From: a virus
IMG/VR virus record: IMGVR_UViG_3300025009_000068
Location: 1 to 64,000 of that record
Length of the DNA: 64,000 nt
Reading direction: 5' to 3' (one strand)
The notes under the pieces are model-generated. The model saw only the letters and a program-made list of their open reading frames with translations. It was not told the DNA's origin and searched no databases. Positions 5,122-63,314 of this stretch are shown here, one piece after another (the stretch's first letter is position 1; each line of letters opens with the position of its first letter). The translations under genes and the position numbers were made by a program.

Positions 5122-5202
5122 GGGCACGGCAGGTAAAGGGGGGAAGGGCAAAACAAGGAAGCCCTTCCCCCCTTCAAGGATATAAAGAGGAGAATCATCG
5201 CC

Positions 5203-5814
5203 ATGTTTTTTCAAAAGGCCAGAAGAATCAAGGAACTGGAAAAAGCACTTGCAAGGTCGGATGAAACCACGAACAAGATCATCGAGGAAGCCGAAACAGA
5301 CATGCAAGTCCGCCAGAACAAGGCCATCAACGCCTTGAAGGAAAGGTATGCGGAAGACCTCATGGGGAAGATCGAGAAGGTCAAGGCCGCGCTAAAGGAA
5401 GAGCACGACACTAAAATCTCGGCCTTGAAGGAAAAACACTCCGCCGCAATATCCTCACTTCAAGGCAAACTCCGCGATCAGTCCGAGGCCGATGCGCTTC
5501 TCTCCGCGGTTCACTTGGTTGCCGAGGTCGCGAGAAGTAGAGGTATGGAGTCGAGGACGGACAAGGAGAAAATTGCCGACCTCGAGAAGAAACTGGAAGA
5601 GAATGCGAAGAACTGGAGAATTCAGGCGGAGGCGATACGGTCGGGCCTTGGAGGCTTGGCCACGCAGCAACAGCAGCATCTTCAATTCGGATATCCTTTT
5701 GGCCTGCTGGGCGAAAGTCTTGGCTCTCCGTTTGGAGATGCGATCAAAGTCGCTGACATTTTGCCACTTGAACCCGGACAAGTTCGGCCACGCATTCGGT
5801 GGAGAGAGCCCTGA
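5203..5814 (+). CDS. Coiled-coil hypothetical protein
   Basis: GAGGAG RBS; K/E/A-rich heptads. Confidence 0.7.
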   Translation: MFFQKARRIKELEKALARSDETTNKIIEEAETDMQVRQNKAINALKERYAEDLMGKIEKVKAALKEEHDTKISALKEKHSAAISSLQGKLRDQSEADALLSAVHLVAEVARSRGMESRTDKEKIADLEKKLEENAKNWRIQAEAIRSGLGGLATQQQQHLQFGYPFGLLGESLGSPFGDAIKVADILPLEPGQVRPRIRWREP

Positions 5815-6100
5815 ATACGAGCACGAGATAGAGCGATGCGACGAAACGCTTGGTCGGGTGCTCAGCGGCATCGACCGTGAGAGAACGCACGTCATGGTCA
5901 TCTCGGACCATGGTTTCGACGGGGCCGAGTTTCGCCATCTCAACGCTCCGTGGTCCTGGTGTGCTACGGACATTCCGTTGCGTCAACGGTGGGCCGATGG
6001 AGGGGCCTGCACCGTTGACGTGTATCTGACCGTGCTTGAGTGGTTTGATGTGCCAGCACGAAAAGAACTGCCCCAACTTCGAGGGAGGTCACTTCTGTAA
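5738..6100 (+). pseudogene. C-terminal fragment of an alkaline phosphatase/nucleotide pyrophosphatase superfamily gene
   Basis: PDKFGHAFG and VISDHG metal-ligand motifs and GRSLL end; N-terminal half absent; overlaps the 5203 gene in another frame. Confidence 0.65.
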
Positions 6101-6141
6101 TCAAGGATCTCAAAGATCTCAATGATCTCAAGGATCTTGAA
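6101..6141. repeat. 9-bp degenerate tandem repeat (CAAnGATCT) x4 at the convergent gene junction
   Basis: tcaaggatctcaaagatctcaatgatctcaaggatct. Confidence 0.75.
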
Positions 6142-9000: not shown

Positions 9001-12000
9001 TCATTTGAACGCAGCCTTGGTGCTATCATAAACATCTCTGGCTAATTCATTTTTGCTTCTTGTAAGCTCATCAATACTTTTCCGTTTCATTTCTGGCGTG
9101 AGATCCCTACGAAGATGAATGTTTCTGATCTCCTGATCAATCATACTGAATTGTCTTTGCACCTTATTAAAAGTGTCTTTGTATGTCAATTTACGTCGTT
9201 CCCGCTCGATAAGCTCTCCAGCTTTTCCTGGCTCCATGGTTTTCTCATAGCGTCTGACCGTGGCATAAAGCTGGTCAACCTCGCGGATCATCTCGTACAT
9301 GGAAGTGACATACTTGGTGTGGCGGGCCGGGTCTTCCTGAACGAACCGGCGAATGACAGGAAGGTCATCCAGGCGGCTAGCTGGAGGGTCCGGATAATCA
9401 TACATCCATCGCACGGCGACATCGGACGCCATAAGTGCATATGTCCCGAGCGTCCCGAAGTAGCCGCGCATGAAGGCCTCCATCCTCTTAGGGGAAACGT
9501 TGGTGGCTTCCCCGATCACGGACACGGTTTCCCCGGTCCATGGGTCGCGGCGCGCTCCTGGTTGCAAGGCTTGCAGGGACTGTCCCTCAATTGGACGTCC
9601 AGTGAAAAAGCTCTTGTTGGCATACTGCTCAATCATTGGCCCAATGAGCTGCGGAGGCTGCCACGAGAAAGTTTGATTCAGCGTGAACAGCATGCGCCTG
9701 GCAAACTCTTTCGAAGTCCCTTCCCCAAGCCACCACTCGGCCAGCCTCTCCGGGATGGTGGAGAAGATGGCGCCCACCTCGAAGGGTTTGGGGAGACGGA
9801 AATGCTCATCAAGGACAAAGAAGTGATAGTAGTTGTCCCGATCCCATTCCTCAAGCTCCTTATACCTGTCATCATCCGCATTCATGGCATACAAGGCAAG
9901 GGTAGCCCCCATGAGGATCATCCCCTTCGTGGCAAACCCCCTGGGGTTCTCGCGGTATCCATGGTAAAGGCGCTGCGCTCCCTGGAGCCTGGCCCCGAAG
10001 AAGGGAACCGTCTCGCAGAGGAATTTGATGGTCATCCAGTCACCGCGCTTCGAGTAATCCATGATGCGCTTGGCTTCATAGGCCGCTTCGACGTGAGCAC
10101 CGCCACGGGCTCGGATATTGGCATAAATCTGTGTTCTGGTCGCATTCTCGAATCGGCTTCCAAACTTCTCCCAGAACGCCCACATTTTCTTTACGCTGTT
10201 AAGCACCGTTGACCCGTCAACCTTGTATTTCTTGTTGAGCTTCTCAACTTCTCGCTTGGCTGCCTCCAAATCATGCCCAAAAGCATACCCTCCGGAGAAG
10301 GCAGCTCCAGACGCCTGCATCGCCACATAATCCTCATCTTCACGAAAAGTCTTTATCGCCCCCTTCACGGAATCCACCCCGGCCTTGAAGTCGGGGGAAA
10401 CCACCCATGCACTCAAGGTATCTCGAGTAAGGTTGGCGATCATGAAGCCAGGGTCAGCGGTGACGCCCCGAGTAAGGAGTCGCTTGGCTGTCCGCATGGC
10501 CTTCATGGCTGGACCTCCCCATGGGCGCTCGTTCACCGCCGAGAGCGACCGCAATACAAGCGAATCCTGAATGTGGTAATAGACTGGCTTCCCATCGCGC
10601 AAAACGTGAATCACATCGGGACCCTGGGGCTTGGTCATCTGGAACATTCGGTACAGGCTCTGAAGAGACTTGAAATCGAGCAAGCTGGTATCGATACCCA
10701 TGGATTCCAGGAGCGGACCATACTCGGCCTCGACTATCTTCTTGATCTGATTCCCCGGAACAATGGCGGGCTTGAACTGATTCTTGGCTTTGACCGCAAC
10801 ACCCATTTTCTCGGCGGCCTGGATGGAAAGCTCGGTTGCGTGGTTTTTGACGCTGGCGTCCACGAGGTGAGAAAAGTTCATCATGATGTTGACGAATATG
10901 TCCCCAAGCCTCGATTCACCGCCTTTGAGCTTCTTGATGCCACTGTACTGACTTGCGACGGAGTTTTTATTTCGTGGCCCTTTGAGCCCTTGAGTTTCTT
11001 CCATGATCCGGTAGAATGGCACGTACTCGTCGTGGTCCCAGAGAAGACGCTCTTCGGCGTTGATTACTCCACTCGCCTCCGCGAAGTCGAGAACCCCCTT
11101 CTTGAAGGCAATGTAGTCGGCTTCCACCTTAAGGAACTTGGCCTTGTTTTCGGGAAGGGTGATGATGCGCTTGAGTGCCTTGATCTCAGCGTCGGTGAAG
11201 TAGTTCTCGCGGCCCTCGGCCATGAGCTTCTCGGCGCGCTTTCCGACCATCCATCCGAGGAACATGTCAAGTTGGTCGGCCACGGGCTCGAAGACTTGGG
11301 CGAGCCCCTTGTTCCTGGTTGGGGTCCATACGGCGCCTTCCTTCCATTGGGGCACGCCGTGGTTCATCATGGTCGCCAGCATATCCCCGAGAGATGTGGT
11401 CATGGTGGCTGCGACGTATGGGTCTTCCTGGATCCTGGATGCGTTGCTGGCCGTGTCGATCCCGGCTGATTTCGCAAGTGCCTTGAGGGATGCGAACCTA
11501 TCGAAAATGCCCTGCTCGGCCTTGAGCTTCCAGTTGTCGAGAGCGGCGTCGAGCTTCTCCTTCGTTGTTTTTTGGGCCGGGCCGATTTTGTTCAGGGCGG
11601 CATCGATTTCGGCGTCTCCGGTCGAGGCGCGTTGAGCTTTGGCGCGAGACCAGTTTGGGAATTTAGGAAGCTGGGGCAGGCGGATTGCGCCTTGCTCGCT
11701 TTGAAGGGGAGGGGTTAGGGCGGAGCGAAGTTGCTCGGGTTGCTTCTGCTGCCCTTGCTGCTCGGGCTGCTTCCCCGCCGCCTCCCCTTCCGGGCTCAGG
11801 GCCGAGACTATCTGGTCGGAGTTGAAGACGACGTATTCAACGACAGTCTTATCTCTTTTGCCAATTACCCCATCAAAGCCTTGGGATTTCAACGACGCAA
11901 TGTCTTTAGGGGAAAGATTAGCGGAAGCACCTGTATCAAAATCAACGATCTTGGGATTTTTAATAGCCAGATAAACCTGATGCACGCCTGGAACATCGGC

Positions 12001-15000
12001 TTGATCCGCAAACACGCTGGCCAATCTTGCGTTAGGAGTGAAGTAAAATCCACCGTTGCCGCCTCGCCTGTCCGGCTTATTTTTGAATTCTCCTATTGCT
12101 GCTTCGCCACCATGGAATACGGCAAGCGGTTCCCCATCCTCCCCAACAACCCGAGTCCCCGCAAGCTTCGCCTTCGCTGATTCAGGGAGATCCTTGGGAG
12201 CAACAGCCATCTGAGTCTCACCGTCCCCAAACCGCACAATGGCGTCCTCGGGCGCGATGTTTTCGGAAGAGTAGGGCGGCGTTGCCCGGCGTTGCTCCGG
12301 GGTCAGGTTGGATCGGGATGCTACGTCCCTGGCTTCTATTTCTCCGGCGAGACGATTGTAAATGGAGAATGCTGCCGTTTGTCCAACATCTCCACCAAAA
12401 ACGGATCTAACGCTAGTCCATGTCGGCTTCTCAGATTTAATTCTGTCGATTGCGGTTTCAAACTCTTTTGGATGTTGCTGTTTTATCTTTTCAATTAATG
12501 GAGCCCCGCCTCGAGCGAAGTCTTCAAGTTTTTGGATGGCGTGCTGGATCTCATGAAGGAGATCTTTTTTAAGATTCGTATTTAGATCTTTACCTAACTC
12601 AGCAAACACCTCTTTGCTCGGATATCGAATCTCAATCTTGTTCGATCTGGGACTATAAGACCCCGATATTTTGGAACCATCAGGATTCTCAAGAAACGTA
12701 AGTCCCAGCTTCCTTAATTCTGGATACTGTTTGAAAAGTTCAGGATGATCCAAAATATCATCAAGTGTCATTCCATATCGTTGGGAAACATCTACGGCCG
12801 CTCTCCATTTGTCTACTCCTAAGCCTTCAAATTTCCCCTTCCTATAAACATGAAACCCGTCATCAGATTCCTTGAACTTAAACTCCTTGGGCAGTATCTC
12901 ATCTGCTTTCTTTATCCTCGCCCCACTATCATCAATCTCAAATTTTTCCCTTTTGTCATACAAACTAGAGAACTTTCCCTCGGCCTTGTCCCACCATTGC
13001 GCCTTCGGCCCAGCAAAGGTCCCCCACTCATTCTTCACGGCATCAGGCAGCTTCGCGTAAGCCCGTTGCGCGGCGGCGAAGATCTTCAGCACGTACCGGC
13101 GCACGGCGTCGAAGGCGTCCCCGAGAACGCGAGACAGCTCTTCCTTGAAGGTGCGGGCCGTGTTGTGGCCGCGGGCGATTATACGGGCTCCCAGGTCGGT
13201 CAGGCGGGGCATGATGCGCGGCATCAACTCTTCTATGCTGGCCTTGGCCGCGCGGATTTCTCGGATCAACTCGTCTACCGGGAAGCCTGAGTATAGGTTG
13301 GTGGTGCCTTGTCCGCCTGGCGCTTGCCATGAATACAGAGGCAACAAGTCAAGCTCAGACTCGGCGAATACCTTGTCCATTTCTTCCTTATCTACGTTTT
13401 CAATGCTGAGCTCGGCAGTGAATACGGCATTTTCCATGGTCCTTTCACCAGATGCCAAAGCCAGCCCACTCTGCTTGTCCACCACGACCCATGGGTATGC
13501 TCCGTCAATCTTGTAAGCGAACGCTTCTCGCCCATCGGGAAGGCCCTTCACCTTCACAGCTTTTCCGCTCACGCGCTTTGCGGCCTGGCCTCCATCGGCA
13601 TCAACTACGGTCGTGAAGAACTCGGAGTATCCAGCCTTGTGGGTGATCTTCTCTTCGGGGTTAGTGATTTTGATTTTGGGAACGCCTTGAAGGGTGGGTG
13701 CTTGCCTATCTTCCTGCTCTCTCTCTTCTTTGGCGTTTCCGCCCTCCATCTCTTCTGCGCCAACACGCCCACTCCCCTGGAAGGGAGCCACGTCATCCAC
13801 AATGGGCCTGCTCTTTGTAACCTTGTCCAGAACCTGCCCGGCATCCGTTCCCGTAGGAATGAAATAGCGAGTCTTCCAATTGACGCGCTCCGTGAAAACC
13901 CCGGCCCGCGCAAGCTCCGCATCGAAGTTAAAGTTCGGCCCAACAATTTCGATCCTCATTTCCCCGGACACGCGAGACTCTTTTACCGTCCACCCGTTCG
14001 AAAGCTCAAGCCGGTGCCCTTGGCCAAGAAGTTGAATCGCCCTGTCCGTTGGGTATTCAGCCGTCGTTCTCGATGCTCCAAGGTTCCTCAGCGTATTGGA
14101 CAGGTCCTCCCGGTTGATGAGCCTCCCGAGAAATCGCTGCCCCTTGTCGGTCTGAATCCTGACAATCCTCGCCTTCCCGGTAAGCCGGTCCCAGATCGGA
14201 AGGATGGCGCCAGAGATCAAGTGTGTGCGCTGCGTGACCATCTTGGGAACCTTGTCATACTCATCGTTCCATAGCTTTTCAGCCTCTTCTTTTTCTACCC
14301 TCCTCCACTTCTTCTCGTCATCCAGATCAATAGTCTCGACGTTTTGATGCCTGCTCGACGGGGCCGTGAGAAGCGCTTCGTTCACCACATCACCGCTCGA
14401 CTTGGTTCTAAGCTTTTCCGAGCCTCGCCCCCAAACATTTTTGCTCCGAAGGTTCTGGTAATATCCCTTCCTGGCAACCTTGCCGCTCTCTTCCCATGAA
14501 ACAACGGGCGTCGGGTTGGACACGTCGAGCTCCACATACTTCGTTTCGGCCCCCGACTTCTCGTCGGTATGGACGGTCTGCTCGCTCACCAATTCGATCT
14601 TCGCGGCCTTCAAGTTCTCTAGCCCCTGGTCGAGCGTTCCATTCTCGATCTCGCGTCGAACAATGGCATCCATCTCTTTCGAGAAGGCATCAAACACGGC
14701 ATTCTGAGTATCGTATTTCAAGGAAAGGAGACGGTTCAGGAACTGCGTCATTGGTGGAGACGCCGCCGCCTGCATACCATTATCATTCCTGAGCTTCATT
14801 CCGGTTTGAAGCTCGAAGTCATCAACGCTCACCCCGGAAATCTCGCCATCATGCAGCAGGTTCTTCAAGAACTTCTGCAACGCCTCGGTTGCGTACTCAC
14901 TTTCCAGATTGTCCCGTGCGCTGAAGAATCCCTGACTTCCTGTTTGCCTCTGGCCTTTGGTGAGTGCCCCAAGCTGGTCAAGGCGCCGAGCGATGGAAGA

Positions 15001-18000
15001 AAGAAACCGCTTCTGTCCTTTAAGGTCCGTCGTAACCAGGAGATAATGAGGGGCCTGCTTCTGATTGGTCCGGTGCGTCCGACCGAATCCTTGCACTGCA
15101 ACATCCGCTCGCCACCCTGCTTGAACCAGGAAGTGGATACGCTTCTTCTGGTTTTTCGCCTTCAAGTCGGCGTGATAACTGAGCCCGGTCCCGCCGGCCG
15201 TTGAGAAGACAAGGATATTTTTCTCCCCTTCCTGGAACGCCTGTGCGTCGGTTTCGGTCTTGGCCTTGCTACGCTTTTCTCGTACCCTCTTCCCGGATTC
15301 ATCGGTAACGACCCGCTGCGTTCTCCCGGTCACTTCGGCAACGTCCTTCACGCCAAACTCATTCAGGATCATTTCAAGCGGCCCATCGGGAACACGGATG
15401 CTTCCAAGCTGATCGAGAAGCCTCTCCTTCATGGCTTCGGCCGTCCGGTTCACAACCGGGTTCCCGTTGGCATCCAACACGGGGCGGCTCTTCACATTCC
15501 CGTCCTCATCTGCGTATTGCTCATACTGGAAGATGGGGAAGCTCCGTTCGATGTACTGCATAAGCTGATCGCGCGGCGTGAGATCGAGGTCTTCCAGAGA
15601 TTCATCTTCTTCCAGGTTCGCCATAGCCCGGCCAAGACTTGCCTCGTTCGTATTCACGAGCTGGATCACGCAGGCGTTCCCGCTCTCAAGCTCTTTATTC
15701 ATCCTGGAAATGACGGAAGGCATCTGAATGGAAGTGATGATCTGGTTAAAAAACCTCTGATGAGATCCCCAAAAAGCGGACATTGCCGCGCTCTTGGCAC
15801 GACCGTCCATGGTTTTTCCGTCTTCATCCACGACTCCGGTTTCTTGAAGGGCTTCATTCAGGTTGTTCAGAACGGTTTGCCATCCTTCGGCCAGCTTGTC
15901 GTAAATGTCACGTTGGTCGGCGGTAAGGACGTGCTCGAGCTTGTCATAGGTCACATCGTGGAAGGAGAGAGAGCGGGCAAGATATTTCCCCATGGATTTC
16001 ATGTCGCGGGACACAAGCTCCATGGCCGCGATGCCGCCCGATTGAATTTGACCCACGAAGGCTTGCACGGAAGGAAAGGGAGTGCCAGTGCCCCAAAGCC
16101 CAAGGCGCTTGGCGTAGGCAAGGTTCATGACTTCCGTTGCGCCGGTTGCGGACACGTAGACCACTCGTGCGTTGGGAAGTTTGTCTTGAAGCTCGATTAC
16201 GGCGAGTGCTGTCTTGGACGGGTCTTTCCGTCCGCGCTGTCCCTGGACCTGCAAGGCGTTCCCGGCGCGATGCGATTCATCAAGTGCGATCACTCCATCG
16301 AAATCCGCACCTAACCATGCAACCACTTGATCAATGCGGCGCTTCCCGGACTTGCCCTGCTCACCCTTCGCGGCCATCTTGAGCGTGTCGTAGGTTCCGA
16401 AGAGAATCCCCTCGGAGGCGTTGATGGACGAAGTTGCCTTGACTTTGCCAAGCTCAAAGATTTTCTCTGCGTCGTCACCAATTCCTTCAGTGTCGCGGCG
16501 AGCATCCTTGAAGAGGGAAGAATTTGCGCTGAGCCACACACCTTTCTTGCGGCCCTTGTTCCAATTATCGAGGAAGACACCGGCTATCTCCCTTCCCTTG
16601 CCGACACCGGTTCCGTCGCCAATAAAGAACCCCTGCCGCTCCCCACCTTCAAGGATGGTATCGTGGGCCTGCCCGGCGCGCACAATCGTTTCCATCTGGG
16701 CATCGGAGAGATTGCCGGCAGCAAGAACTTCCTTAGGAATTGACGGGACATAATCGGCGGGAGGGGCCTCAACGGAAGCCATGGCAGCACTCTCGACAAG
16801 ATTGCCGGGGTGCGCTTTGGTACCCGCTACTTTCACGGAAGGCTTGTATGCGTCGTAAACGGAATCTGAGAGGGCTTCAGCTTGAGTTTCGGCTTTGGCC
16901 ATGGAGACTTCTAATCGCTGTTGCTGGCGTAGTCCGGCCTCGCGGTCGCTATCATCCTTTCCTCGACCTGGCCTATCAACTCGAGTGCCTGGCTCACCGG
17001 AGACTTGCTCGGATTGCGGAGAAGCTCCACCCGGTCTCCCGCCTCGCTTTCCCCCGTCAGCACCTTCATCACTTCTTCCGGGCTCCACCGGCTCATTGAC
17101 CTCACCGTCTCGCTTACCCGGCTGTCGAGGTCGAGGCTCTTGTTGTCCAGAGCCCACAACATCAACTGAAGACTGTGGAGTAACGATGGGTCTTGGCTCT
17201 GTTTGGCCTTCTTGAGCGCCTTGAGCGCGGCCCGGTTGAGCTTGTGAAGATTCAGCGCCTTGACTTGTCTTGGATCGTTGGCGTGCATTTCTCACTCCAA
17301 GTAAGAGGGGCAATGCTTCTGTCACATCTTCAACACTGCCTTTGATTATATTATCGAAACCCGGCCCCGTTTTGTCAATGACAATCACGCGATTATCAAA
17401 CGTGGTTCCATATTTCTGATATCCCTTTCCCGATAGGCCAATGTCGGCCAGGACGGTGTACTTCTTCCCGATCTTGGCGAACCAGTCCCGGAAGGAGGGA
17501 GCGTCCACCGACATGCCGCGCCCGACGATGGCAACGAGGCGCCCGCGGTCTTCAAGGCGATTCAATGCCTGCTCGATATGCCGAGCCGCATTCATGGTGT
17601 TACGCTGCCCCTTGATGCGTCCAGCCGTGGAAGAAAAGGGAGGGTTCATGACGACTACGGTAGGTTTTACGTCATCGAGCAGAACATTGTCCAGTTGCTC
17701 GGCATTCTCGGTAAACACCCGGTCGAAGCCCATCTCTTCAAGGATGGCGGCGCGGCGCGGCGAAAGCTCATTCACGAAGACTTTTGCACCTGCGTTCTTG
17801 GCGAACACGGCAAGCCCGCCAATGCCCGCCGATGGCTCGATGGCCGTGTCTTGTTCGTTTACGTTCGCAACCCAGGAAGCAAGATAGGCCAGGGGTGGAG
17901 GCGTCGAGAACTGCTGAAATTCATCCATTTCCTCTGTACGCTTGGATTGCGTCGGTAGCTTGGCAATGAGGTTTTGAAGTTCTTTGACTTTTTGCTCAGC

Positions 18001-21000
18001 TTCCTGAAGGGTGTGGTTGGACGGATTCATAGTAAGATCTGACGCGAGGATAGCCTGATTTACGCCCATCTCCATTGCGTCATAGGCATCCTTTGGAGTG
18101 TATTTGCCTTGAGCCTGCGTTCCACTGAATGCTTTGTCGGCTTCGGAGAAAAGATCCTGCCAGGTGAAGGATTCCTTCCGCGCGACCTTCCCTTTTACCC
18201 AGGTTGCAAGACGTTGGCTGGAAGATGCGGCAGGAGCTTGTTCCTCTTCTCTGGACGCATCAGCCATGGACTTCGCGGGGGTGACCGGGGCAGGTGCGGA
18301 GGGTTCTGGTTCAAGAGCGTCTTCGCTCTTGGGCTTCTCCGCCTCCACCTCCTCAACCGTCATGAACTGCTCGTCGATGTATCCTGGACGCAACACAAAG
18401 GATTGGACCCGCATTCCCCCTTCAAGGATGTAGCGAGCGCCCTTGTCGTCGGAGTAGATCGTATCCCCGTCCCTGTTCTTTCCGACGATTATTCGTTGGG
18501 GTCCTGGCTGAGCGGTCTGCTCAGACTTCTCTGCGACATTCTCATCCTTCCCTGCCTTCTCCCCTCCAATCCCCAACGCCGCCCGTACCGCGGCCTCGTT
18601 CTTCTTGGGGAACACCCATCCCTTGTGCTTGCCGTTGTAGAGCCCGCTGTGCTGCTTCAAGACGGGGGCGATGCGGTCCTTGTTCGCAGTGTAGTCGCCC
18701 TTCACGATTATGGACTTGGTGTCCAGGTCTGAGACTGTTAGGGTGGGGGGAGTGGAAGAGGCAGGTTGAACGGGGGAGGATGTCGTTGGCCGAGAAGAGA
18801 GAGGGGGCTCTTCCTTTGCTGCTGGCTCTTCCTCCACTTCCTTCTCTGCCACGGCAACCGGCTCAGCTTTCTCCTTGAGCGGCTTCCGAGCGGCGGTCTC
18901 GGCCGTCGGCCCGGTGCGGGTCTGCTTCGGCGTTACGGGGGGAGGGGCGGCGGGCAGTGCTGCGGGAGCTTCTGGTTTCTTTACCAACTTCCCAGTTTCC
19001 GTATCGACTACCAACCCATCACGCTGAGAATTTCCGAAATACCGGATCTCAACCGGGATGTCTTTTAGCCCGGCCTCAACAGCAGCACGAACACGGTGAT
19101 TCCCCTCGGAGATATGGACCTTCCCGTCCTTCTCCTTGAAGATGATGATGGGCTCCTTGACGCCGTTTTGCTTCACGTCCTGAACGAAAGCATTCCACTT
19201 CGCTGTGCCATATCCTCCGGTTCGATCTCTCTTGAATAGAAGGTGCTCGTCATTCTCTCCCGGCAGACCAACTATCTCTCGAGGATCAATCATCCCGCGA
19301 TCTGACCGGGTGGTATCGGTGCGTCCAGCATTCCAGTCCGGAGGGCCTTCATCGATGCGTGTTTTCCATTTCGGCTTCTCGGATTCTGCACTTCCCTTCT
19401 CCGCCTTCTCCTTCCCAGCCTGCTCTCGATCCTTGCGCTCCTGGTCAAGCCGCTTCCGCTCGGCCAATTGCTCGGCAAGCCCGGCCGCGAAGGGGAGATC
19501 AACATCCTCCTTCTGCTTCACTACGCCCTGCTCGGTCTCAATAACCTTCGGCACCTTCTTGCCTACAGGCTTCGTGGCATCGCCGCCCTTGAGCCATGCC
19601 TTGAATTCCGGCATGGTGAATTCGGTTATGGCGCCAAGGCCCTGCCACCCTTCCGGGTAATTGGCAAGGTAGGTTCCTAGTGCCTGCTGCTCGTCCTTTC
19701 CACCAGCTACGGCCTTCAATTCATCGAACTTGCCGGTTTCGGGATTTATCTGGTCGATAATGAACACCGGAAGTTTTGCATCCAGCGTCTTGTCTCCGGT
19801 CAGATTATCCGTCCGCACGAACACGTCGAGCAGGTCCTTGTCGCGGCCACGAACCCCCTTGATCCTGCCGTAATGCGCCTCTTTTATGACACGCTGCCAC
19901 TTCGGGGGGTCGTGATTCACGTCTTTCCGGACGGAGCCGATGGGACTTTCTATGGAGATCGGGATTCCCTGGAAGGAGAAGTGGCCGAGCTCTGCGTTGT
20001 CGGCTTTAATCTGCGGGGTCGTGGGTTGTGGCTTGTCGTTCAGCGGGGAGCTTGCTGCTTCGTGGGCGGCTATGTCGAGCGGCGTTTTCAGGGACTGCTG
20101 GGCTATGGATACGGGGTTTTCTTGTTCTGACTGCTGGCCTTGAAGAGGAGGGGCTTCTCCTTCGAGGCCTTCTCGCGTTGTTTGTCCTTCGAGGCCAGCC
20201 GGTTCTCCCTGCCCTACTTCTTCGGCGGTTCCTTGACGTGCCGCTTCCCCACCGGGTTCCTCGGATTTTGGGAATTCCAGATCTTGGCCGCCTTCTCCTG
20301 CGCCTTGTCCCTGGACATTCCCTCCCGGATAAACCTGTCCCTCATCGCTTCGTATCCCTTGGGCATCGGGTGCTTCTCCTTTCATTGCCTCTTGCGGCTC
20401 TTGTTGCGGCTCTTGTTGTGGCATGGCAAGAGGCTGTCTCGCGGCAGTTTGCGGAGTCGGGGTTGTGCGTTGGGCCGGTCCTCCAGGCGTCGGTACTTCC
20501 GGTCGCGCAAGAATGGCCTCGGGAGAGTACCGCTCTTCCTGGACGCCCTGCCTTACCGGGGTGCGCGTCGCGGCCTCTCCTGTCACGAGCTGTGACGGAT
20601 TAATCTGGTCGTAATACGCCTTGATCGAGTTAAAGATTTTGAGCTTGTTGCTCCTATCCTTCAAGGAAATTTTGCGAGAGTCGGCGTATTCAAGCATCTG
20701 ATCCCGGTTCATGCCGCGCAGGTCGGGGACCATCATGCGCCAATTCTGAGTCGGGGAAGGAAGTCTTGGAACGCCTTCAGGAGCTGGCTCGCCAGGATAC
20801 CCCTCCGGGGGAGCGGGAAGTCCAAAGCGCTCTTGCGGTGCTTCGATTCCGATGCGCTCCACGCGCTGAAGCTCTGGAAAGCCTTTTGGCCCTGAAGGAG
20901 GAGTGGCCGGCTGCCCGGTGTCGCCTGTATCTTCCGACCCTGCTCCACCTTCCCCGCCAGTCCCGCCTTGCCCTCTTCTCCCCTGTGCCGCCGTTCCAAG

Positions 21001-42013: not shown

Positions 42014-42095
42014 GGATTATATGGAAGGACAGCGGCTCATCCTCTCGGGTTTATGAATTAGGTTGGCCTTGAAGGTGAGTGTGGTGAAACTGAAT

Positions 42096-43819: not shown

Positions 43820-44140
43820 AGAGCCTTGAAGGGTGGGGCGGGGAGCAAGGCCGCGCGCTAAGGGTGTTCACCGTGGCGTGGATGATCCACAACCAACATG
43901 GCGAGCCCGGAACCGCGAGCCTGTCCCACTCCCTCCCTTCGAGGTATTCTCTGGTTGTGCCTGGCGGAGCCGAGAAGGGATGGATCTAAGCCACTTCCTC
44001 CACGGTGTTCCGCTCAAGGCAATGCGTTGAGGTGTGTGGTGGTTGATGTGAATGATGGTGCTGATTGTAATGTGATGGTTGATGATTATTTGGAGCCTAG
44101 ACAGCGCCGATAGTCGCCACCGACGTGTTGCCACGGCTCC
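43820..44140 (-). promoter_or_regulatory. Structured 5' leader of the scaffold gene with four AYA/C internal-loop hairpins
   Basis: Base pairing read directly; see finding. Confidence 0.65.
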
Positions 44141-48155: not shown

Positions 48156-50656
48156 TATTGCACCCCCCCACCATTTCCGGCACGGGCCATCATTGCCTGG
48201 AAGTCAGCCCCGCCTCCACGAACACCAGCCTGATTCATCTGCTGCGGTGCGATTATTGGTGGGCCGGCCGCTCCGTTTCCGCCTTGAAGGGGAGGGGACT
48301 GTCTGACGTTGCCACCGCCCGCGCCACCTTGTCCGCCGCCCTGCCCCTGCCCGGCCTCCATCAGCGCCTGAGCCATGACCTCCATGGGAATCCCGAGCCG
48401 CTCAGAAAGCACGCCCAGCATGGCCACCACTTTTTGCTGCTCCTGCTCTGCCGCCACGGCATCTTCATCCGGAATCAACCCGGAAAGATCGATATCCAAG
48501 CTCTCGACAGCGCTCCTCACAAGCTCGGCCATTGCGGGCTTCCCGAGGATTTCGAGGATGATCGGAGATCGCAATGCCAACGACATGAACTCGTTCAGCC
48601 GGATCTGCCGCTGCTCCTCGACTATGAGTGCCGTGCTCCCGCGCGGAACAACAAACACATCCCCCTTCAAGGCATGATCCGAATCGTAAAGCATGACATG
48701 GTATGCGTGCTGCCTGACCGACGGCACCGTAATCCCGTCGTCGATGTGGAAGATCACGGACTTTATCCCCTTGCCGGCGGCATTCATAAGCATGCTGAGT
48801 CCCGTGGCAGTGCGCGCGGCCCCGGAGCTCTCCGACATGCCGTACACGTAATTCGGTATCCCCGTGCTCTCTCCCGCCTGCTTGGCCCAGTAGTCGTAAA
48901 CTTTTAAGAGCATGTCGGTCATGGGGTTTGGCGAGAAGAACTGAATAGGGATGGCGCTTCCCCCATTTGGGTCCCGCTTGAACTGCCACACCTTCCAGGG
49001 GGAAAACTCGTCTGATTTCTCGCCGGGCATGAGCCGTGACGCATCGGTTATGGCAACCTGCGGTCCCGAAGCCATTCCCATATTATTGACCACCGACCGC
49101 GCCGCGGCGTTGCACATATACTGCTCTGGAGCCATGACTTCCGGGAGGGCTTTCCCCCAAATCGAGCCAGGAACGTTTTCGAAGCTGGCGGAATAGTAAG
49201 GGCGATTCCCAAGCGGGTCGGGATTCACTATGGCCTTGATGACATATTGACCAACGGCCCGCGCACAGACCTGATATTCCCTTTCAGGCTCAATCGGCTC
49301 GACCTTCGTGACCATGGCGCCCGGCCGGCGCTCGGCACTTACATGCTCCCTCATTCCCCATTCGATGAGCAAGCTTCCCTGGACGGAGCCCCAGAAGATC
49401 AAAGAGTCCATTTTCCCTTCAGGATCCGAAGTGTATTCCTCTTCCCGGCTCTCTAATCGAGCGCGCTCCTGATCCTGGTAATCCCACTCGCGGTAACCGG
49501 TGCGCCCGTAGTGCTGCAAGCAAAGCCGAATCTGCTCGGAGTGATAGCCTGGAGTCCCGGCGAGGGATGCAAGCTCGGACCTGGAAATGGAATCCCGCTC
49601 CAGGAGATACCCATCCTGCAAGGTCCGGGCCCCTGGTGAAGGGAAGATGTCGAAAGGGGAAACGCGGTCATATTCCTTCACGAGCTTCTTTTCGACACGC
49701 ATTTCCGGGTTCATCAAGTCTTGTGAGTGGTCCCAGACAATCCTGGCCTTCCTGCGGATCGTCGGGCCTTTAAGGAAAGCCGTTGGGAATGTGGCGATGT
49801 CGTAGAGCAGAGAATCGAGCGCGGAATACCACCCGCCTTCCTTGAAGTCGTCATCAACCTTTTCCTCGAGCTTGTCCGACCGCTTCTTTCCTTCCTCGTC
49901 ATAAGTCGCGGAAAGCTTCTCCTTCATTTTCTCGATGCGAGTCCGCAACTCTTCGGATGATATCGGGGCACCGGCCTCGAGGATTTCACGCTGAGCCTCG
50001 ACAACCAGACGCTGCTCGAGCTGCGGTGAAAGCGTGGGGATCGGAGTTGCATTGAGAGAAAAAGGCTTCCCGCCGGGCGGGCGAAGAATGTCACGGCACC
50101 AGCTTTCGAGCGCACGACATTTGATGTTGGTGATCATAATAAAGACTTCCGAGCCACCACGGGACTGAATGAGGGTAAGCTCGTCGGCCTCGTATTCCCC
50201 GAGGCGCTGCCGCAAGCATTTAAGCAGGCGCGGCTGAATGGATTGCTGCTTGGCGTTTCGCGCGGCCTCGAAGCATGTGCGAATGTGGGTTCCAATGGAG
50301 AGAATCTGCTGCTGGTTTTGGAGCTTCTCTGCCTCGGCCTGCTGGACTTGCATGCGTGAGTGGTAATCCAGCTCATCGTTTGAGATGAGGCGCATGTAGG
50401 GCTGAGGAGGAAGAGAAGACGGCGGAGGCGGTTGGTAAGGCGGATAGGGCTGGGAAGGAGAGAGAAGCCTTGAAGGTGGAAGGCCTTGCTGCGGCGCTGC
50501 TTGTGATGCCTGGCCGGTAGGCATTTGCTGTGCCTGCCCCACCTGGAATACCGGCACGGCTTGCTGTCTCATCCATCCCTGTTGGAGCCCGCCGCCACCA
50601 CCCATGCCGCCTACCATATTGATTTCTCCGTGGAGGTTGGATTTTTTGTGCACCAA
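48155..50656 (-). CDS. Portal protein
   Basis: RVSPFDIFPSP, PGSIWG, NNMGMASGPQV, ARTATGLSMLM motifs; follows TerL. Confidence 0.88.
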   Translation of the reverse strand: MVHKKSNLHGEINMVGGMGGGGGLQQGWMRQQAVPVFQVGQAQQMPTGQASQAAPQQGLPPSRLLSPSQPYPPYQPPPPSSLPPQPYMRLISNDELDYHSRMQVQQAEAEKLQNQQQILSIGTHIRTCFEAARNAKQQSIQPRLLKCLRQRLGEYEADELTLIQSRGGSEVFIMITNIKCRALESWCRDILRPPGGKPFSLNATPIPTLSPQLEQRLVVEAQREILEAGAPISSEELRTRIEKMKEKLSATYDEEGKKRSDKLEEKVDDDFKEGGWYSALDSLLYDIATFPTAFLKGPTIRRKARIVWDHSQDLMNPEMRVEKKLVKEYDRVSPFDIFPSPGARTLQDGYLLERDSISRSELASLAGTPGYHSEQIRLCLQHYGRTGYREWDYQDQERARLESREEEYTSDPEGKMDSLIFWGSVQGSLLIEWGMREHVSAERRPGAMVTKVEPIEPEREYQVCARAVGQYVIKAIVNPDPLGNRPYYSASFENVPGSIWGKALPEVMAPEQYMCNAAARSVVNNMGMASGPQVAITDASRLMPGEKSDEFSPWKVWQFKRDPNGGSAIPIQFFSPNPMTDMLLKVYDYWAKQAGESTGIPNYVYGMSESSGAARTATGLSMLMNAAGKGIKSVIFHIDDGITVPSVRQHAYHVMLYDSDHALKGDVFVVPRGSTALIVEEQRQIRLNEFMSLALRSPIILEILGKPAMAELVRSAVESLDIDLSGLIPDEDAVAAEQEQQKVVAMLGVLSERLGIPMEVMAQALMEAGQGQGGGQGGAGGGNVRQSPPLQGGNGAAGPPIIAPQQMNQAGVRGGGADFQAMMARAGNGGGVQ

Positions 50657-50728
50657 TTGGATATTGTTGACATTTTTGAATCAATTCCACCTTCAAGGTT
50701 ATATTTCTGGTTATATTTCTCTGCCATT

Positions 50729-52970: not shown

Positions 52971-53563
52971 CGGCCGCGCTCGGCCTCATAGACATGCTCA
53001 TCCGGCCATCCACCCCTCTCGGCCGGCAGTCCCCGGGTCTTTCCGTCGATCTTTGCAATCAAGGCCTTCAATCCCAACTCGCCCGACATCTCTACCTTTT
53101 CGCTCCGAGGCATCCTGGAAAGGATGAAATCCCTGTCATGGTGAGAAAGCTTCCCGCCGAGCGCCGCAAGGAAGAGGTTCGCCATTTCCATCCCGGCCGC
53201 GATCTCTCGCACGGTGTTGATGGCCCAGTCTCGCGTGTAGTTGCCCTGGGGCTGCTCGATGCAGTAGAGGATCCTGAACGCGAGCACGACATCCGGGGAT
53301 GCCTGGAAGAGGAGTTGCTTGAGATTGTCGGCGGCCGTGTTGTTCCTGGCTATGGACGCAGGGATATCAACCGGCGGCTGCTCCGGTGCGGGCGGAATGC
53401 CGTAGGGGTAAATCGAGTCGGGAGGAATTGCGGCGCCGCCTACGCTGGCACCACCCTCCATAGAAGAGGAGGGGAGCGACAAAGCGAATGGATCATGCAG
53501 GTTACCCGGACTCGGTATCCCTGGAAGGGGAGGGGCTGGTGGCTTAGCTCTGGACGCTGACAT
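52964..53563 (-). CDS. Putative terminase small subunit
   Basis: Position upstream of TerL; KVEMSGELGLKALIAKIDGKTRGLP C-terminus. Confidence 0.45.
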   Translation of the reverse strand: MSASRAKPPAPPLPGIPSPGNLHDPFALSLPSSSMEGGASVGGAAIPPDSIYPYGIPPAPEQPPVDIPASIARNNTAADNLKQLLFQASPDVVLAFRILYCIEQPQGNYTRDWAINTVREIAAGMEMANLFLAALGGKLSHHDRDFILSRMPRSEKVEMSGELGLKALIAKIDGKTRGLPAERGGWPDEHVYEAERGRE

Positions 53564-55260: not shown

Positions 55261-56670
55261 CTATGCTCCCGCTGCCATCGCATCGACCGCCACTACATGC
55301 CGCTGCCATCGCTGGAGCTCCATAGCCAAAATAGCCTCGACCGCCGGGCCACGAACCGCCGCATGATCCTCTAAGCTTGGAAGAGGGAGGAGAACTGACT
55401 CGGGCTCGAAAGACCGCTCTTCGGAATCTGCCGTTGCCGCTTCTGCCTTTAATGCTTCCACCTTTATCGCCTCTTCCTTCATTCTCCTATCCATGTCCGC
55501 TAATCTCATTCCACCACTCAAGATCCCGCGCAAATCCAGCTCAGCATCCAGCGTCATCGAAGCGCGGTTGGAGGCCGAAAAAACCAAGGGAAGAATGGAG
55601 GCAACGTCAACAGTAACGCCGCCACGCTCCTCACTTCCCTCACCCTTCAAGGCCTCTCTCCACTCTTCGCTCTCCAACTCAACACTCGCATACATGGCCT
55701 CCGCTACTCTCCCGCGCAACACGTCAGGATCAATCCGCGCATGTCGGCAGCACCAGGCCAGTGTGAACGGGATTTGATCTTGCTGGATACCCTCTTCCAC
55801 TTCTTCGCCTGTTGCACCCCCAGCCCTGCCAATCCCACCGCCAGCCCTGCCGGTCCCGTGAAAAACCTCGAAGGGAGGAATCCCGGGGGCCCGGGGCGAA
55901 AACCACTCTTCCGATGGAAGCGCGATCCAATCGTCCCCGAACAAATCACCCGGCCGCCGCCCGGCAATCTCGGCCATGGCTACCTGCCGCGCCCGGAGAA
56001 ACGTGGTCCGAATCGCTGTCTGAATAATGCGCTGCGCCGTGAGCCTGAGAATCGTGGCGGGCTCCATGTCGAGAGCATCGCTGCAAAACAGGATGGAGAT
56101 TTTCGGGCCATAGTTACGCTGTAGGAACTGCCTTGAAAGAGGGGACGGTGTAGTATAGTGATCCGAGGATGGCATCCTGCGAACCGGAGGGACGTATGCT
56201 TCCGGGCCGCCTGGACAAGCTTCACGCTCAGCCTCGACGGCATTGCGCTCGGTCCATGTCCCCCACACAGCGCCATACTGCTTATTCTTCATCCTTTTCC
56301 AGCTCACCGCATGAGCTTGTGCTCGGCTATGGACCACGCCGACCAGCGTCTGCCATATCCCGCCGCCAAACCACTCGGCCCCGTCCTCGCCATCGAGGAA
56401 CCAGGCTCCAAGCTCGAGCCAAAGGTCCCGCTCCAAGGTCTCGTGGACTATTCCGCTCACCGGCCAGAGCGCCACGACCGTCGCATCCTCCACGGCTTGG
56501 GCGAGTACGGCAGCCGCCAGGGACCTCGTTGAGTCATAGATGAGCGAGCATGGCGACGCAAAGCCCATGATGTCTTCGTGGTAGTTTACAAAGCTGCCCG
56601 CGCTTCCCGCTCGCTTGGCTTGCGCCGATGATGCTGGCGACGCCGGTGACGCTGGACGATCTCCCCCCAT
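55261..56670 (-). CDS. Hypothetical protein, first gene of the late operon
   Basis: 469-aa ORF with GAGG RBS. Confidence 0.65.
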   Translation of the reverse strand: MGGDRPASPASPASSAQAKRAGSAGSFVNYHEDIMGFASPCSLIYDSTRSLAAAVLAQAVEDATVVALWPVSGIVHETLERDLWLELGAWFLDGEDGAEWFGGGIWQTLVGVVHSRAQAHAVSWKRMKNKQYGAVWGTWTERNAVEAEREACPGGPEAYVPPVRRMPSSDHYTTPSPLSRQFLQRNYGPKISILFCSDALDMEPATILRLTAQRIIQTAIRTTFLRARQVAMAEIAGRRPGDLFGDDWIALPSEEWFSPRAPGIPPFEVFHGTGRAGGGIGRAGGATGEEVEEGIQQDQIPFTLAWCCRHARIDPDVLRGRVAEAMYASVELESEEWREALKGEGSEERGGVTVDVASILPLVFSASNRASMTLDAELDLRGILSGGMRLADMDRRMKEEAIKVEALKAEAATADSEERSFEPESVLLPLPSLEDHAAVRGPAVEAILAMELQRWQRHVVAVDAMAAGA

Positions 56671-56869
56671 TTTCCTCTAAGCCCTCCTCCCCTTCAAGGC
56701 TTGCTGTGTCTGTATTTCTCACCGTTCTCGACCCATTCCCCGGCAAAATACTGTTCTTGGAGCATTATCATACAGGTGAGGATGACATACGGCCAGAAAA
56801 ACCTTGAAGGAATGAATTTGTGTTGGGATAGATGGGCATGTCAGGGCGGGGTGGTGCAGAATCGGTGCA

Positions 56870-59425: not shown

Positions 59426-59743
59426 ATGCCACTCTACAACGCAAAAGGCGAACAAATCCTCTCCCCGGCCGCCGCCGCCCGAGCAACCGGAATGACCGAC
59501 CGATGGATCCGGATGATGATGACCGAGGAGAAGGTCAGGTCCTCCCTGGAAGGGGGGAGGCGATTCGTGGTGGTGAGCAGCTTGCGGGAGCGGCTGCTTG
59601 AAATGCGAGGGAAGCGGGAAGAAATTGTCGCGAAGAATGGAGGGTACGGAGAAGAAGGGAGAAAGGCGTTGAGGAGGAGGAGGGAAGACAGGTACTGGGA
59701 AGGGAAAATGAAGAAGTTTTTGGAGAATGAGATTGTTGACTGA
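59426..59743 (+). CDS. Excisionase/MerR-like HTH DNA-binding protein
   Basis: LSPAAAARATGMTDRWIRMM...GGRRFV. Confidence 0.7.
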   Translation: MPLYNAKGEQILSPAAAARATGMTDRWIRMMMTEEKVRSSLEGGRRFVVVSSLRERLLEMRGKREEIVAKNGGYGEEGRKALRRRREDRYWEGKMKKFLENEIVD

Positions 59744-60266: not shown

Positions 60267-60342
60267 GAGAGCGAGGATAAAACGTCGAAAGCAGACAAAA
60301 GCCTTAAGGGAAAGGGGCCTTACTTTCTTGACCTCCTCACCT

Positions 60343-60819
60343 TCAAGGCTTTTTCTTTTTATTTTCCCCGTCATGTCTCTCGCCCTCCCGCGCCATATAC
60401 TCCTCGATCCAAGTTTCAATATCCTCATCCCTAACCGCCCACCACCCTTTCCCGGGAAGCTGCTTCGCCGGCAGCCCGGCCTGGGCCACGAGCTTTTTTA
60501 CGGTCTCGGGACAAAACGGCCTCGAAGGAGAGAGCCTGCGCCCAATGGAGCGGAGCGTGCGGTGCGTGTGGTCCGGCACAGGAGGGAGCGATGCGATGTT
60601 TGGCCGCGGGATCTCATGGCGGAGAGCGTCCGTGATCTCCGAATGGCAGGCCGAGGCGGTGAATTTCAGGAGGCGGGATACTGTTTTTTCTATTGAGGAT
60701 GGCGGGGAGGGTTGCACTGCGGGTGGTTGTGTGAGTGGTTTCGCTGCTGGTTTCGCCGCCGCCGCTTCCCCTCGAAGGGTGGTGATTGGCTTTCCTTGAG
60801 GTGATGGTCTTCGCGCCAT
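60343..60819 (-). CDS. Excisionase-like HTH DNA-binding protein
   Basis: LRSIG...CPETVKKLV..GLPAKQLPGKGWW...IETWIE. Confidence 0.6.
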   Translation of the reverse strand: MARRPSPQGKPITTLRGEAAAAKPAAKPLTQPPAVQPSPPSSIEKTVSRLLKFTASACHSEITDALRHEIPRPNIASLPPVPDHTHRTLRSIGRRLSPSRPFCPETVKKLVAQAGLPAKQLPGKGWWAVRDEDIETWIEEYMAREGERHDGENKKKKP

Positions 60820-62443: not shown

Positions 62444-62472
62444 GGTTTTCTATCCCTCCTTCTCGCCATCCC

Positions 62473-63018
62473 TCACCCCTCCCTAACCACAACAACGCAC
62501 CGGCTCTTCCCCTCCCCGACCCGCACCGACTCCATGACCACGCGCCGAACGAACCGCGGCGAATCCCCGGCCAAGATTTTCACGGTGACAAGCCCGTCAA
62601 TGATCATTTTCAGCGTTGCCGACAAATTGTCCGCGTCGTACATTCTGGCACCCTTGGCAAAGCAGCCGAAGCATTCTACTGTGACCGGATATCGCCCACC
62701 CCACCGAGCAAGCCTTTGCTTCCTGGCCTCGCGCGCTATGAGGTGCTGCCATTTGATTTTAAGCTTGATCCTATCTTTTGTGGTGAGCTTTCCGTGGAAT
62801 TCGTTGGTTGACGGGGCTATGGCCGGGACATGGAAGTGGAAGAAGAAGGGGGAGACTGGTTGAGGGGCGAGTTGAGAATGATGGGATGAAGCAGGTTGAG
62901 AAGGCGGAGTAGGGACATGGATGTATGGAGTAATCAGCGATTCCGATAGGGTGGTGATGGTGGAAGATATGGTAGCAGGCGATTTGATCACGGCGTTTTC
63001 TCCCTTTAAGGATTGCAC
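62473..63018 (-). CDS. RusA-like Holliday junction resolvase
   Basis: PSTNE...DADNL...KMIIDGLV...ILAGDSPRFV. Confidence 0.72.
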   Translation of the reverse strand: MQSLKGENAVIKSPATISSTITTLSESLITPYIHVPTPPSQPASSHHSQLAPQPVSPFFFHFHVPAIAPSTNEFHGKLTTKDRIKLKIKWQHLIAREARKQRLARWGGRYPVTVECFGCFAKGARMYDADNLSATLKMIIDGLVTVKILAGDSPRFVRRVVMESVRVGEGKSRCVVVVREG

Positions 63019-63041
63019 TTCTGCTCGCTCCTACTCAGGCA

Positions 63042-63314
63042 CTACTCAACGAACTTCGGATCTGTCTCCTTCAAGGCATATCCAGATGAAATATACGTGC
63101 ATTCCACCCACTCAATCTCTTTTTCCTTCAACATTTCGTCAAGCAGTTTTACGGCGTCTTCAGACTCCATGCCATGACGTTTGTGGAGTTGATATTGAAG
63201 CTCGTCCAGCGGGGCCGGGGCCATGTAAGCCGCCGTGTGCCACCAGATGTAATGCAGCGCCGTTTCTTTTGGCGTTCTTTGAACGTCCTTCTTTGTCGAT
63301 TTCGATCCAGTCAA
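63042..63314 (-). CDS. Small winged-helix-like hypothetical protein
   Basis: Overlaps the upstream gene's stop. Confidence 0.5.
   Translation of the reverse strand: MTGSKSTKKDVQRTPKETALHYIWWHTAAYMAPAPLDELQYQLHKRHGMESEDAVKLLDEMLKEKEIEWVECTYISSGYALKETDPKFVE

Follow-up and report, generated by a model that had tools for sequence, protein, structure and literature searches.

The first 64,000 nucleotides of the IMG/VR record IMGVR_UViG_3300025009_000068 (the window), which comes from groundwater metagenomes, hold phage genes and spacers strewn with copies of a short DNA word, CCTTSAAGG (S, C or G). The whole record (G000) is 89,432 bp long, with a G+C content of 54.6% and a CheckV completeness of 100%. 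Judging from its genes, it is a podovirus-like, virulent-looking phage of a lineage without a cultured relative. The window contains the large terminase, portal and major head genes, together with a giant gene for a polyvalent protein (Table 1); the virion genes of G000 also include an internal virion protein and a tail fibre. The same word recurs in a relative, IMGVR_UViG_3300002097_000027 (G001; 85,285 bp), whose terminase is 82% identical to that of G000. A preliminary description of the window, made by reading its letters, had reported an iterated word. Our analysis confirms and strengthens that observation: CCTTSAAGG is the visible part of a genome-wide word that is selected, asymmetric and specific to this lineage.

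Each of the 25 starts listed in the preliminary description marks an exact copy of CCTTSAAGG, and these are the only copies in the window. Dinucleotide-preserving shuffles of the window contain 0.84 +/- 0.92 copies (maximum, 4), and none of 100 shuffles reached 25. Over the whole genome we counted 37 copies, against 3.96 expected from an order-3 Markov model and 2 occurrences of the reversed control word. The enrichment, which was to vanish under a codon- or dipeptide-preserving shuffle if the idea was wrong, persists. The 85 open reading frames (ORFs) hold 28 sites, compared with 4.5 +/- 1.9 when synonymous codons are shuffled within each gene (maximum, 12 in 500 shuffles) and 1.8 +/- 1.3 when the order of codons is shuffled. 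Both codon shuffles rule out an artefact of codon or dipeptide usage. Copies were said to fall in intergenic DNA and in different reading frames, and we indeed found all three frames in use, in both orientations relative to the genes. The reported abundance of one-mismatch variants also proved correct, as three variant classes are enriched in G000: CCTTCGAGG/CCTCGAAGG (15 versus 2.2 expected), CCTTCCAGG/CCTGGAAGG (15 versus 3.2) and CTTTCAAGG/CCTTGAAAG (10 versus 2.3). Near-miss words that differ by a C-to-T change are enriched, and the sole depleted near-miss class is that with AGH at the 3' end (9-10 versus 19.4). As to the two gaps noticed, the exact 9-mer is indeed missing from 5.4-13.1 kb and 28.9-41.0 kb, but these stretches do hold variant sites (9777, 30305, 30865, 39854 and 40328).

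The repeated unit is not a palindrome. When copies are oriented so that the central base is C, positions -6 to -1 are mostly pyrimidines, with only 3 G in 222 bases, and the base at +1 is C in 27 of the 37 canonical copies. Nothing comparable to this G-free tract or to the +1 C is found on the mirror flank, and the copies of G001 display the same one-sided pattern. Position 6 takes A, G or C (37, 15 and 15 sites), and its mirror, position 4, accepts no change; words altered at position 4 show no enrichment in G000. Moreover, the CCTTCGAGG and CCTTCCAGG variants carry the G-free tract on the same side as the canonical copies. The one-sided tract, the free position 6 and the fixed position 4 hence define an asymmetric unit of about 14-16 nt, 5'-HHHHH-CCTTC-V-AGG-(C)-3' (H, non-G; V, non-T). 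Because position 6 is free, 30 of 67 sites lack the TTSAA core, and the palindromic look of CCTTSAAGG is incidental, being merely the commonest filling of the free position.

This unit holds about 16 bits of information in its eight fixed positions, plus a compositional flank. When the G-free tract is required, the family comprises 59 sites in G000 and 52 in G001, versus 2.5 +/- 1.8 in order-3 Markov simulations. The window accounts for 43 of them, or 50 when G is permitted in the tract. The density in G000 is about one site per 1.5 kb (0.66 per kb), that is, about one per 3 kb on each strand. The excess is 7-fold for CCTTCVAGG and rises to about 24-fold once the tract is included. We also considered two half-sites with variable spacing, and CCTTC(N0,2,3)AGG is not enriched. 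A palindrome or hairpin as the unit was likewise discarded: a loop of one base is impossible, and an inverted partner is present at only about 10 of the 37 canonical sites.

Comparison with the relative reveals that the word is protected from mutation. About 54 kb of G000 aligns with G001 at 69-99% DNA identity, and G001 contains 32 canonical copies (control word, 0). Among aligned family sites, 37 of 43 still belong to the family in G001, and a further apparent loss, at 5166-5179, comes from a gap of one base in a run of C, with a canonical site at 61625 of G001. Of 344 comparisons at the eight fixed positions, 7 show a difference (2.0%), compared with 14.5% in the flanks of +/-60 nt (binomial, 2e-15). 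The fixed positions are thus far less diverged than their surroundings, which indicates that the word is under purifying selection. In contrast, the free position differs in 7 of the 43 sites, always within A, G or C, and positions of the tract vary between the two phages, never to G. Sites persist where the difference in the flanks reaches 34-48%. Both phages also have private sites, and DNA found only in G000 holds 16 sites in 35 kb. Either selection retains the word or a drive puts it back, and different genes have kept up its density independently of one another. Copies that are shielded from mutation in this way imply that the word is read by something. The further suggestion of the preliminary description, putative binding by a protein of the phage or of its host, agrees with this purifying selection.

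The relative offers two further observations on word-poor DNA. Contigs from four groundwater runs yielded the G001-type strain again and no new relative. This strain carries 2,137 and 823 extra bases at 47046-47159 and 49069-49071, in the virion module, and this extra DNA has zero copies of the word. In addition, 9.5 kb of virion and tail genes (30900-40300) are nearly devoid of the word in both phages, between which they are 88-93% identical; this stretch may be a more recent acquisition than the remainder of the genome.

The orientation of the sites bears no relation to transcription. In G000, 49 of the 59 family sites lie within ORFs, and 34% are near gene ends, a region that makes up 30% of the genome. 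Twenty-seven sites are co-oriented with the gene in which they lie, 22 are opposed and 10 are intergenic. This independence is evidence against a signal read in RNA, and also against promoters, terminators and stoperators; the word would be read as DNA, not RNA. Promoters and terminators were also dismissed on their own account, as there is no orientation rule and no conserved second element, and consensus scans were blank.

On the other hand, orientation is not random along the genome. The two orientations are of similar abundance in G000 (25 and 34 sites), and neighbouring sites tend to alternate between strands, with 39 runs versus 29.8 expected in G000 (P=0.009) and 34 versus 25.6 in G001 (P=0.007). 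The alternation holds for neighbours less than 150 bp, 150-1000 bp and more than 1 kb apart. This is what is expected of a signal that must face both ways. No long-range strand switch in word orientation was seen across the genome. Spacing ranges from random to clustered (coefficients of variation, 1.15 and 1.55), with gaps of 9.5 and 13.5 kb and a word-poor region at 30.9-40.3 kb; even spacing is not seen, either overall or per strand. Base skew near the sites is a local effect within 100 nt only, and probably stems from hairpin partners. Copies in spacers often form one arm of a hairpin, the other arm being an inverted and sometimes degenerate copy (5171, 40967, 60340, 78035 and 84333/84385); the pair at 84333/84385 sits between convergent genes. 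Tight inverted pairs are 21-52 nt apart. A hairpin arm looks like a cheap way of placing the word. Finally, break points of the alignment between the two phages lie within 100 nt of a site in 16 of 66 cases (7.8 expected; P=0.011), and those within genes are near sites in 7 of 29 cases (3.1 expected; P=0.049).

We searched for the word outside these two phages. In IMG/VR, the 19-mer form occurs outside G000 only in G001, and the 16-mer form occurs in 27 other viral contigs, as a single copy in each. Terminase relatives at most 48% identical have 0-1 family sites per 5-21 kb, a count that leaves out the contigs of the terminase relatives P0002 (89%) and P0004 (60%). A search for the inverted-pair pattern returned chance matches and coding tandem repeats only. 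Among the metagenome matches listed for the 17-mer form (at least 116 contigs), we found singletons or another element and no dense contig. In five bacterial genomes we counted 13-27 family sites per 2.3-4.7 Mb, a density 100-200 times below that of the phage, and 301 genomes of one phylum have at most 7 copies of the 12-mer CCCCTTCAAGGC, versus 10 in the phage; neither these genomes nor the metagenome contigs were sampled with the likely host group, the Thermodesulfobacteriota, in mind. A literature search with the 9-mer returned primers only.

These searches also brought up two repeats that are distinct from the phage word. Eleven metagenome contigs of high G+C content share a recurrent hairpin element, CCCTCCCC-TTCAA-GGGGAGGG followed by GGGGTGGGGATGGGG, which is often paired with a second copy of CCCCTCCCCTTCAAGGC about 77 nt away and has no Rfam match. 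The contig IMGVR_UViG_3300008255_004712 (10,966 bp, 68% G+C) has 13 canonical CCTTCAAGG sites, 12 of which lie within copies of a repeat some 45 bp long, with the perfect palindrome CTCTCCCCTCCTTCAAGGAGGGGA...AAGGGGTGGTCCGC at its base. This repeat resembles a repetitive extragenic palindromic (REP) element or a miniature inverted-repeat transposable element (MITE), and belongs to another family than the phage word.

Table 1. Sites of the word in the window, followed by genes of G000 named in the text. Canonical sites read CCTTSAAGG; variants are given by their sequence; tract, the G-free tract; G001, the relative.
Feature	Position	Strand	Remarks
variant CCTTCGAGG	489..497	-	G-free tract
variant CCTTCCAGG	3277..3285	-	G-free tract; kept in G001
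variant CCTTCCAGG	4518..4526	-	G-free tract; kept in G001
canonical	5171..5179	+	intergenic; pyrimidine tract is 3' arm of hairpin
canonical	5333..5341	-	in ORF 5203-5814; kept in G001
canonical	5423..5431	-	in ORF 5203-5814; kept in G001
variant CCTTCGAGG	9777..9785	-	giant gene
canonical	13143..13151	-	giant gene; tract with one G; kept in G001
canonical	13685..13693	-	giant gene
variant CCTTCCAGG	13776..13784	-	G in tract
canonical	16646..16654	+	giant gene, antisense to gene
canonical	18419..18427	+	giant gene, antisense to gene; kept in G001
variant CCTTCCAGG	19968..19976	-	kept in G001
variant CCTTCGAGG	20159..20167	+	lost in G001 through one C/T change
variant CCTTCGAGG	20186..20194	+	G in tract
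canonical	20658..20666	+	giant gene
canonical	22452..22460	-	giant gene; kept in G001
variant CCTTCCAGG	23623..23631	+	G in tract
canonical	23843..23851	-	in ORF 23338-25650
variant CCTTCGAGG	24537..24545	+	homology break point 43 nt away
canonical	25931..25939	-	long form AAGCCCCTCCCCTTCAAGGC; kept in G001
variant CCTTCCAGG	26017..26025	+	G in tract
canonical	28890..28898	+	kept in G001
variant CCTTCCAGG	30305..30313	-	kept in G001
variant CCTTCGAGG	30865..30873	-	G001 reads CCTTCAAGG
variant CCTTCGAGG	39854..39862	+	G in tract
variant CCTTCCAGG	40328..40336	+	kept in G001
canonical	40967..40975	+	26 nt past major head gene; long hairpin with degenerate inverted copy
canonical	42067..42075	-	intergenic; edge of 98.8%-identical block
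variant CCTTCGAGG	42166..42174	+	kept in G001
variant CCTTCGAGG	43346..43354	-	kept in G001
variant CCTTCCAGG	43550..43558	-	kept in G001
canonical	43824..43832	-	kept in G001
variant CCTTCGAGG	43936..43944	+	kept in G001
canonical	47800..47808	-	kept despite 28% flank difference
canonical	48282..48290	-	portal gene; kept in G001
canonical	48664..48672	+	portal gene; absent from G001
variant CCTTCCAGG	48991..48999	+	kept in G001
canonical	50468..50476	-	kept despite 28% flank difference
canonical	50690..50698	+	terminase-portal spacer; at homology break point
variant CCTTCCAGG	53520..53528	-	G001 reads CCTTCAAGG despite 47% flank difference
canonical	55644..55652	+	kept in G001
variant CCTTCGAGG	55866..55874	-	kept despite 34% flank difference
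canonical	56691..56699	+	20 nt upstream of ORF 55261-56670; kept in G001
canonical	56802..56810	-	kept in G001
variant CCTTCCAGG	59545..59553	-	absent from G001
canonical	60340..60348	+	closes hairpin, then T-rich run
variant CCTTCGAGG	60520..60528	-	DNA not common to G001
variant CCTTCGAGG	60770..60778	-	DNA not common to G001
canonical	63068..63076	+	DNA not common to G001; G in tract
polyvalent protein, 4,576 aa	9001-22731	-	giant gene
major head protein	41002-41979		
portal	48155-50656		
large terminase	50729-52393		
MucR/Ros-type zinc-finger regulator	88840-89418	-	beyond the window; Pfam E ~2e-24 to 4e-24

The gene content of G000 offers several candidate readers. The polyvalent protein combines pyrophosphatase (InPase), ParB_N, Strawberry-notch helicase (AAA_34, Helicase_C_4), ART-PolyVal (ADP-ribosyltransferase) and LPD38 domains with a weak, divergent Rossmann segment, which is the sole methyltransferase-like stretch that we found. 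It aligns only patchily with its counterpart in G001, yet the word is dense in both. The phage also encodes a RecD2 helicase, an SbcC-like ATPase, a 3'-5' exonuclease, two HNH endonucleases and a DnaG-type primase of 972 aa that has a zinc ribbon and is probably joined to a helicase. Among the ORFs scanned, there was no Pfam match to RecT, ERF, Rad52, RecA or Gam. Neither G000 nor G001 matched the integrase family (tyrosine recombinase, Phage_integrase), and no repressor was identified. The DNA methyltransferase families C5, N4/N6 and N6 (PF00145, PF01555, PF02384) had no match in either phage. The same was true of type IB topoisomerase (PF01028), which control genomes did match. A search for a T7-type RNA polymerase was negative, and its control likewise matched nothing anywhere. 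Two enzymes were discarded as readers: (C/T)CCTT, as in type IB topoisomerase sites, is present in about 83% of the sites, yet no such enzyme is encoded, and no tyrosine recombinase is encoded either.

The terminase of any cultured phage is at most 44% identical to that of G000. The closest named cellular homologues of the terminase and of the MucR protein belong to metagenome-assembled genomes of Desulfobacterales, Syntrophobacteraceae and Thermodesulfobacteriota, a hint that the host may be a member of the Thermodesulfobacteriota. Two other regions beyond the window drew our attention. At 84866-86242 (minus strand), a radical-SAM-like ORF (242 aa, weak match) adjoins a gene for a DUF1643 protein (E=1e-45), and both are absent from G001. 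At 72864-73643 (plus strand), about 25 tandem units of 15 bp (GAGGGATGCCCCGTT on the minus strand) supply the top 10-12-mers of the genome. This second top k-mer family is unrelated to the word: the array codes for a pentapeptide-repeat protein of 259 aa (Pfam E=7e-24) without a counterpart in G001. The pentapeptide-repeat fold is a DNA mimic in Qnr and MfpA.

The word is directional, ignores genes, is selected for density and interleaves on both strands, all of which would suit a protein that moves along DNA from either side. We tentatively favour, with a probability of roughly 0.3, a polar, Chi-like signal for a DNA-tracking helicase-nuclease. The tracking protein would read the word on the duplex as a polar signal, whichever side it arrives from. 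Having entered at a DNA end or break, the helicase-nuclease would stop degradation at a correctly oriented copy and pass the end to recombination. The enzyme might be a host complex of the RecBCD or AddAB type, or be made up of the products of the RecD2, SbcC-like and exonuclease genes of the phage. Phage DNA with a dense array facing both ways would in this way be protected, and its recombination-dependent replication favoured. In size and format, eight fixed bases with a single free position match the Chi words known so far. It has been reported that phages without a recombinase or a RecBCD inhibitor of their own over-represent the Chi of their host, the virulent phage T5 included (PMC3784561). 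G000, with RecD2, SbcC-like and exonuclease genes and no Pfam match to a recombinase or Gam among the ORFs scanned, would be of this kind, and the break points near sites are also in favour of a Chi-like role.

Several points weigh against a Chi-like role. Tight inverted pairs 21-52 nt apart and hairpin contexts are no feature of Chi. The sequence preference of the word extends over about 16 nt, longer than in any Chi known to us. Chi is defined by over-representation and strand skew in the host, and the match proposed here is drawn from phages alone. The alternation statistic is moderate, and the two phages that yield it are not independent. Jumps in identity across sites, looked for as signs of recombination joints, did not reach significance (P ~0.11-0.15). 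Besides, Chi is quoted at 0.2 per kb with an observed/expected ratio of about 2.3-4.8 (PMC3784561), and the word in G000 is several-fold higher in both respects. Lambdoid Chi sites are concentrated between the replication origin and cos (PMC3784561), whereas the copies in G000 are spread and interleaved.

Among the other explanations, the one that survives best, doubtful as we hold it, is that a phage-encoded, sequence-specific protein binds the asymmetric duplex word as a monomer, for global timing or silencing, genome architecture or marking of self. The MucR/Ros-type regulator would be the candidate. Ros-type zinc fingers bind DNA as single domains, and the protein is present in both phages (E ~2e-25 in G001), 70% identical overall and nearly identical in the zinc-finger domain. 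The word is confined to these two phages, as a private reader would predict, and a complete distant relative without the word (G002) also lacks the MucR/Ros protein. However, a phage with a 55%-identical MucR domain has 0 sites in 126 kb, and MucR/Ros proteins are described as preferring AT-rich DNA, which the word is not. Two of the four tightest site pairs sit in genes annotated as regulators. One of these is the MucR gene itself, where the inverted pair lies in a phage-specific, variable linker insertion; as this is a cheap place for a word pair, it is no evidence of autoregulation. The other, an HTH_17 gene, has no counterpart in G001. There is a precedent in a monomeric phage repressor that reads some 20-30 asymmetric 13-mers genome-wide (PMC9283540). 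Nevertheless, about 80% of the sites lie inside genes and follow no orientation rule, unlike operators or stoperators, and a static duplex binder gives no reason for strand alternation.

It is unlikely, albeit conceivable, that the word is a private mark of self, that is, a phage-encoded Chi system independent of host Chi. The phage's own tracking machinery would read the word as a polar signal and spare or repair phage DNA, and unmarked host DNA would be degraded. The readers could be the products of the RecD2, SbcC-like and exonuclease genes, or else the 4,576-aa polyvalent protein with its helicase, ParB and methyltransferase-like parts, which would be injected.

We give little credence to the idea that the word is a template start for the phage primase, with the pyrimidine-rich strand copied into a purine-rich primer and both strands serving lagging-strand synthesis in either direction. 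Certain primases do favour templates rich in pyrimidines, and the word is strand-specific and interleaved on both strands at about one per 3 kb per strand in a phage that encodes a large primase of its own. Yet DnaG-type primases read trinucleotides, not 14-16 nt, and the primase domain is merely 54% identical between the two phages despite an identical word; no further primase relative was found in IMG/VR. Moreover, the spacing is random to clustered without significant evenness per strand, and no strand switch marks an origin.

Equally improbable, in our opinion, is that the word is common to the host, as an uptake-signal-type or other self word, and that the phage gains by its likeness to the host or the machinery of the host drives the word in. 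The format is that of an uptake signal: about 9-10 nt of core next to a weaker flank, copies in both orientations and all frames, and inverted pairs in intergenic hairpins, at about one per 1.5-2.4 kb. Furthermore, DNA absent from G001 is slightly poor in sites (39% of the genome, with 16 of the 59 sites; P=0.06), as if sites accumulated with time of residence. Against this, no dense array was present in the bacterial DNA sampled (5 and 301 genomes and the metagenome matches listed), none of which was aimed at the likely host group, and we know of no mechanism whereby a virulent phage gains from an uptake signal.

The preliminary description had proposed a HIP-like palindrome around a methylated TTSAA, and we consider such a HIP1-like product of methylation-linked or very-short-patch repair bias very improbable: the excess is genome-wide, frame-independent and positionally conserved as for HIP1 (PMC4390886), and the polyvalent protein has its divergent Rossmann-fold segment, but the word is not symmetric (one-sided tract, free position 6, 30 of 67 sites without the core), neither phage has a match to the C5, N4/N6 or N6 DNA methyltransferase families, and C-to-T near-miss words are enriched, whereas a drive by deamination repair would deplete them.

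Few kinds of sequence signal can point to a genome-wide DNA transaction whose enzyme has yet to be found, and dense genome-wide words are one such kind, known from Chi, uptake sequences, KOPS (FtsK-orienting polar sequences) and HIP1. The signal in G000 is unusually clean, being asymmetric, with one free position, an excess of about 24-fold and a conservation seven times better than that of its surroundings. If a helicase-nuclease reads it, this would be the first dense, two-way array of Chi type for a phage of a non-model host, and would supply a Chi word for a groundwater bacterium not yet in culture. With a phage protein as reader, the word would represent a new way in which a phage marks its own DNA. 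In practical terms, the word can be used as a lineage marker, and host assignment could be tested directly by a count of HHHHHCCTTCVAGG in the genome of a candidate host.

Altogether, the word belongs with the iterated genomic words (Chi, uptake sequences, HIP1 and stoperators), and fully shares the tested defining features of none of them. HIP1 (GCGATCGC) and the alternate HIPs of cyanobacteria are likewise genome-wide and frame-independent, with copies better conserved than their surroundings (Elhai, 2015; PMC4390886). However, HIPs are true palindromes with cognate methyltransferases in cellular genomes, whereas the word of G000 is asymmetric and phage-borne, and neither phage matched the C5, N4/N6 or N6 methyltransferase families. 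The stoperators of Cluster A mycobacteriophages (L5 gp71-type) are also asymmetric words, of 13-14 bp, present in tens of copies per phage genome (PMC9283540; PMC6550527) and read by one monomeric phage protein (PMC9283540). They sit in promoters and in short spacers between genes, oriented according to transcription, in contrast to a word that lies within genes in about 80% of cases, 27 with and 22 against the gene. Other, putative iterated words of uncultured phages, such as CAGTACTG, differ from the one described here in both word and phage lineage; words of this kind may be common in such phages. The DNA uptake sequences (DUS) of Neisseriaceae and the uptake signal sequences (USS) of Pasteurellaceae consist of a core of about 9-12 nt and a weaker flank, and occur in genes, in both orientations and in terminator-like inverted pairs, at about one per kb. 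The word of G000 is like them in being found in both orientations, within genes and as inverted pairs in intergenic hairpins; DUS and USS belong to the genomes of competent bacteria, whereas a word of the G000 type is known from two phages only. Chi in phage genomes is again a short, asymmetric, gene-independent DNA word that also occurs in coding DNA (Bobay, Touchon and Rocha, 2013; PMC3784561). Chi is directional, and the word of G000, with its eight fixed positions, one free position and one-sided flank, has this feature too.

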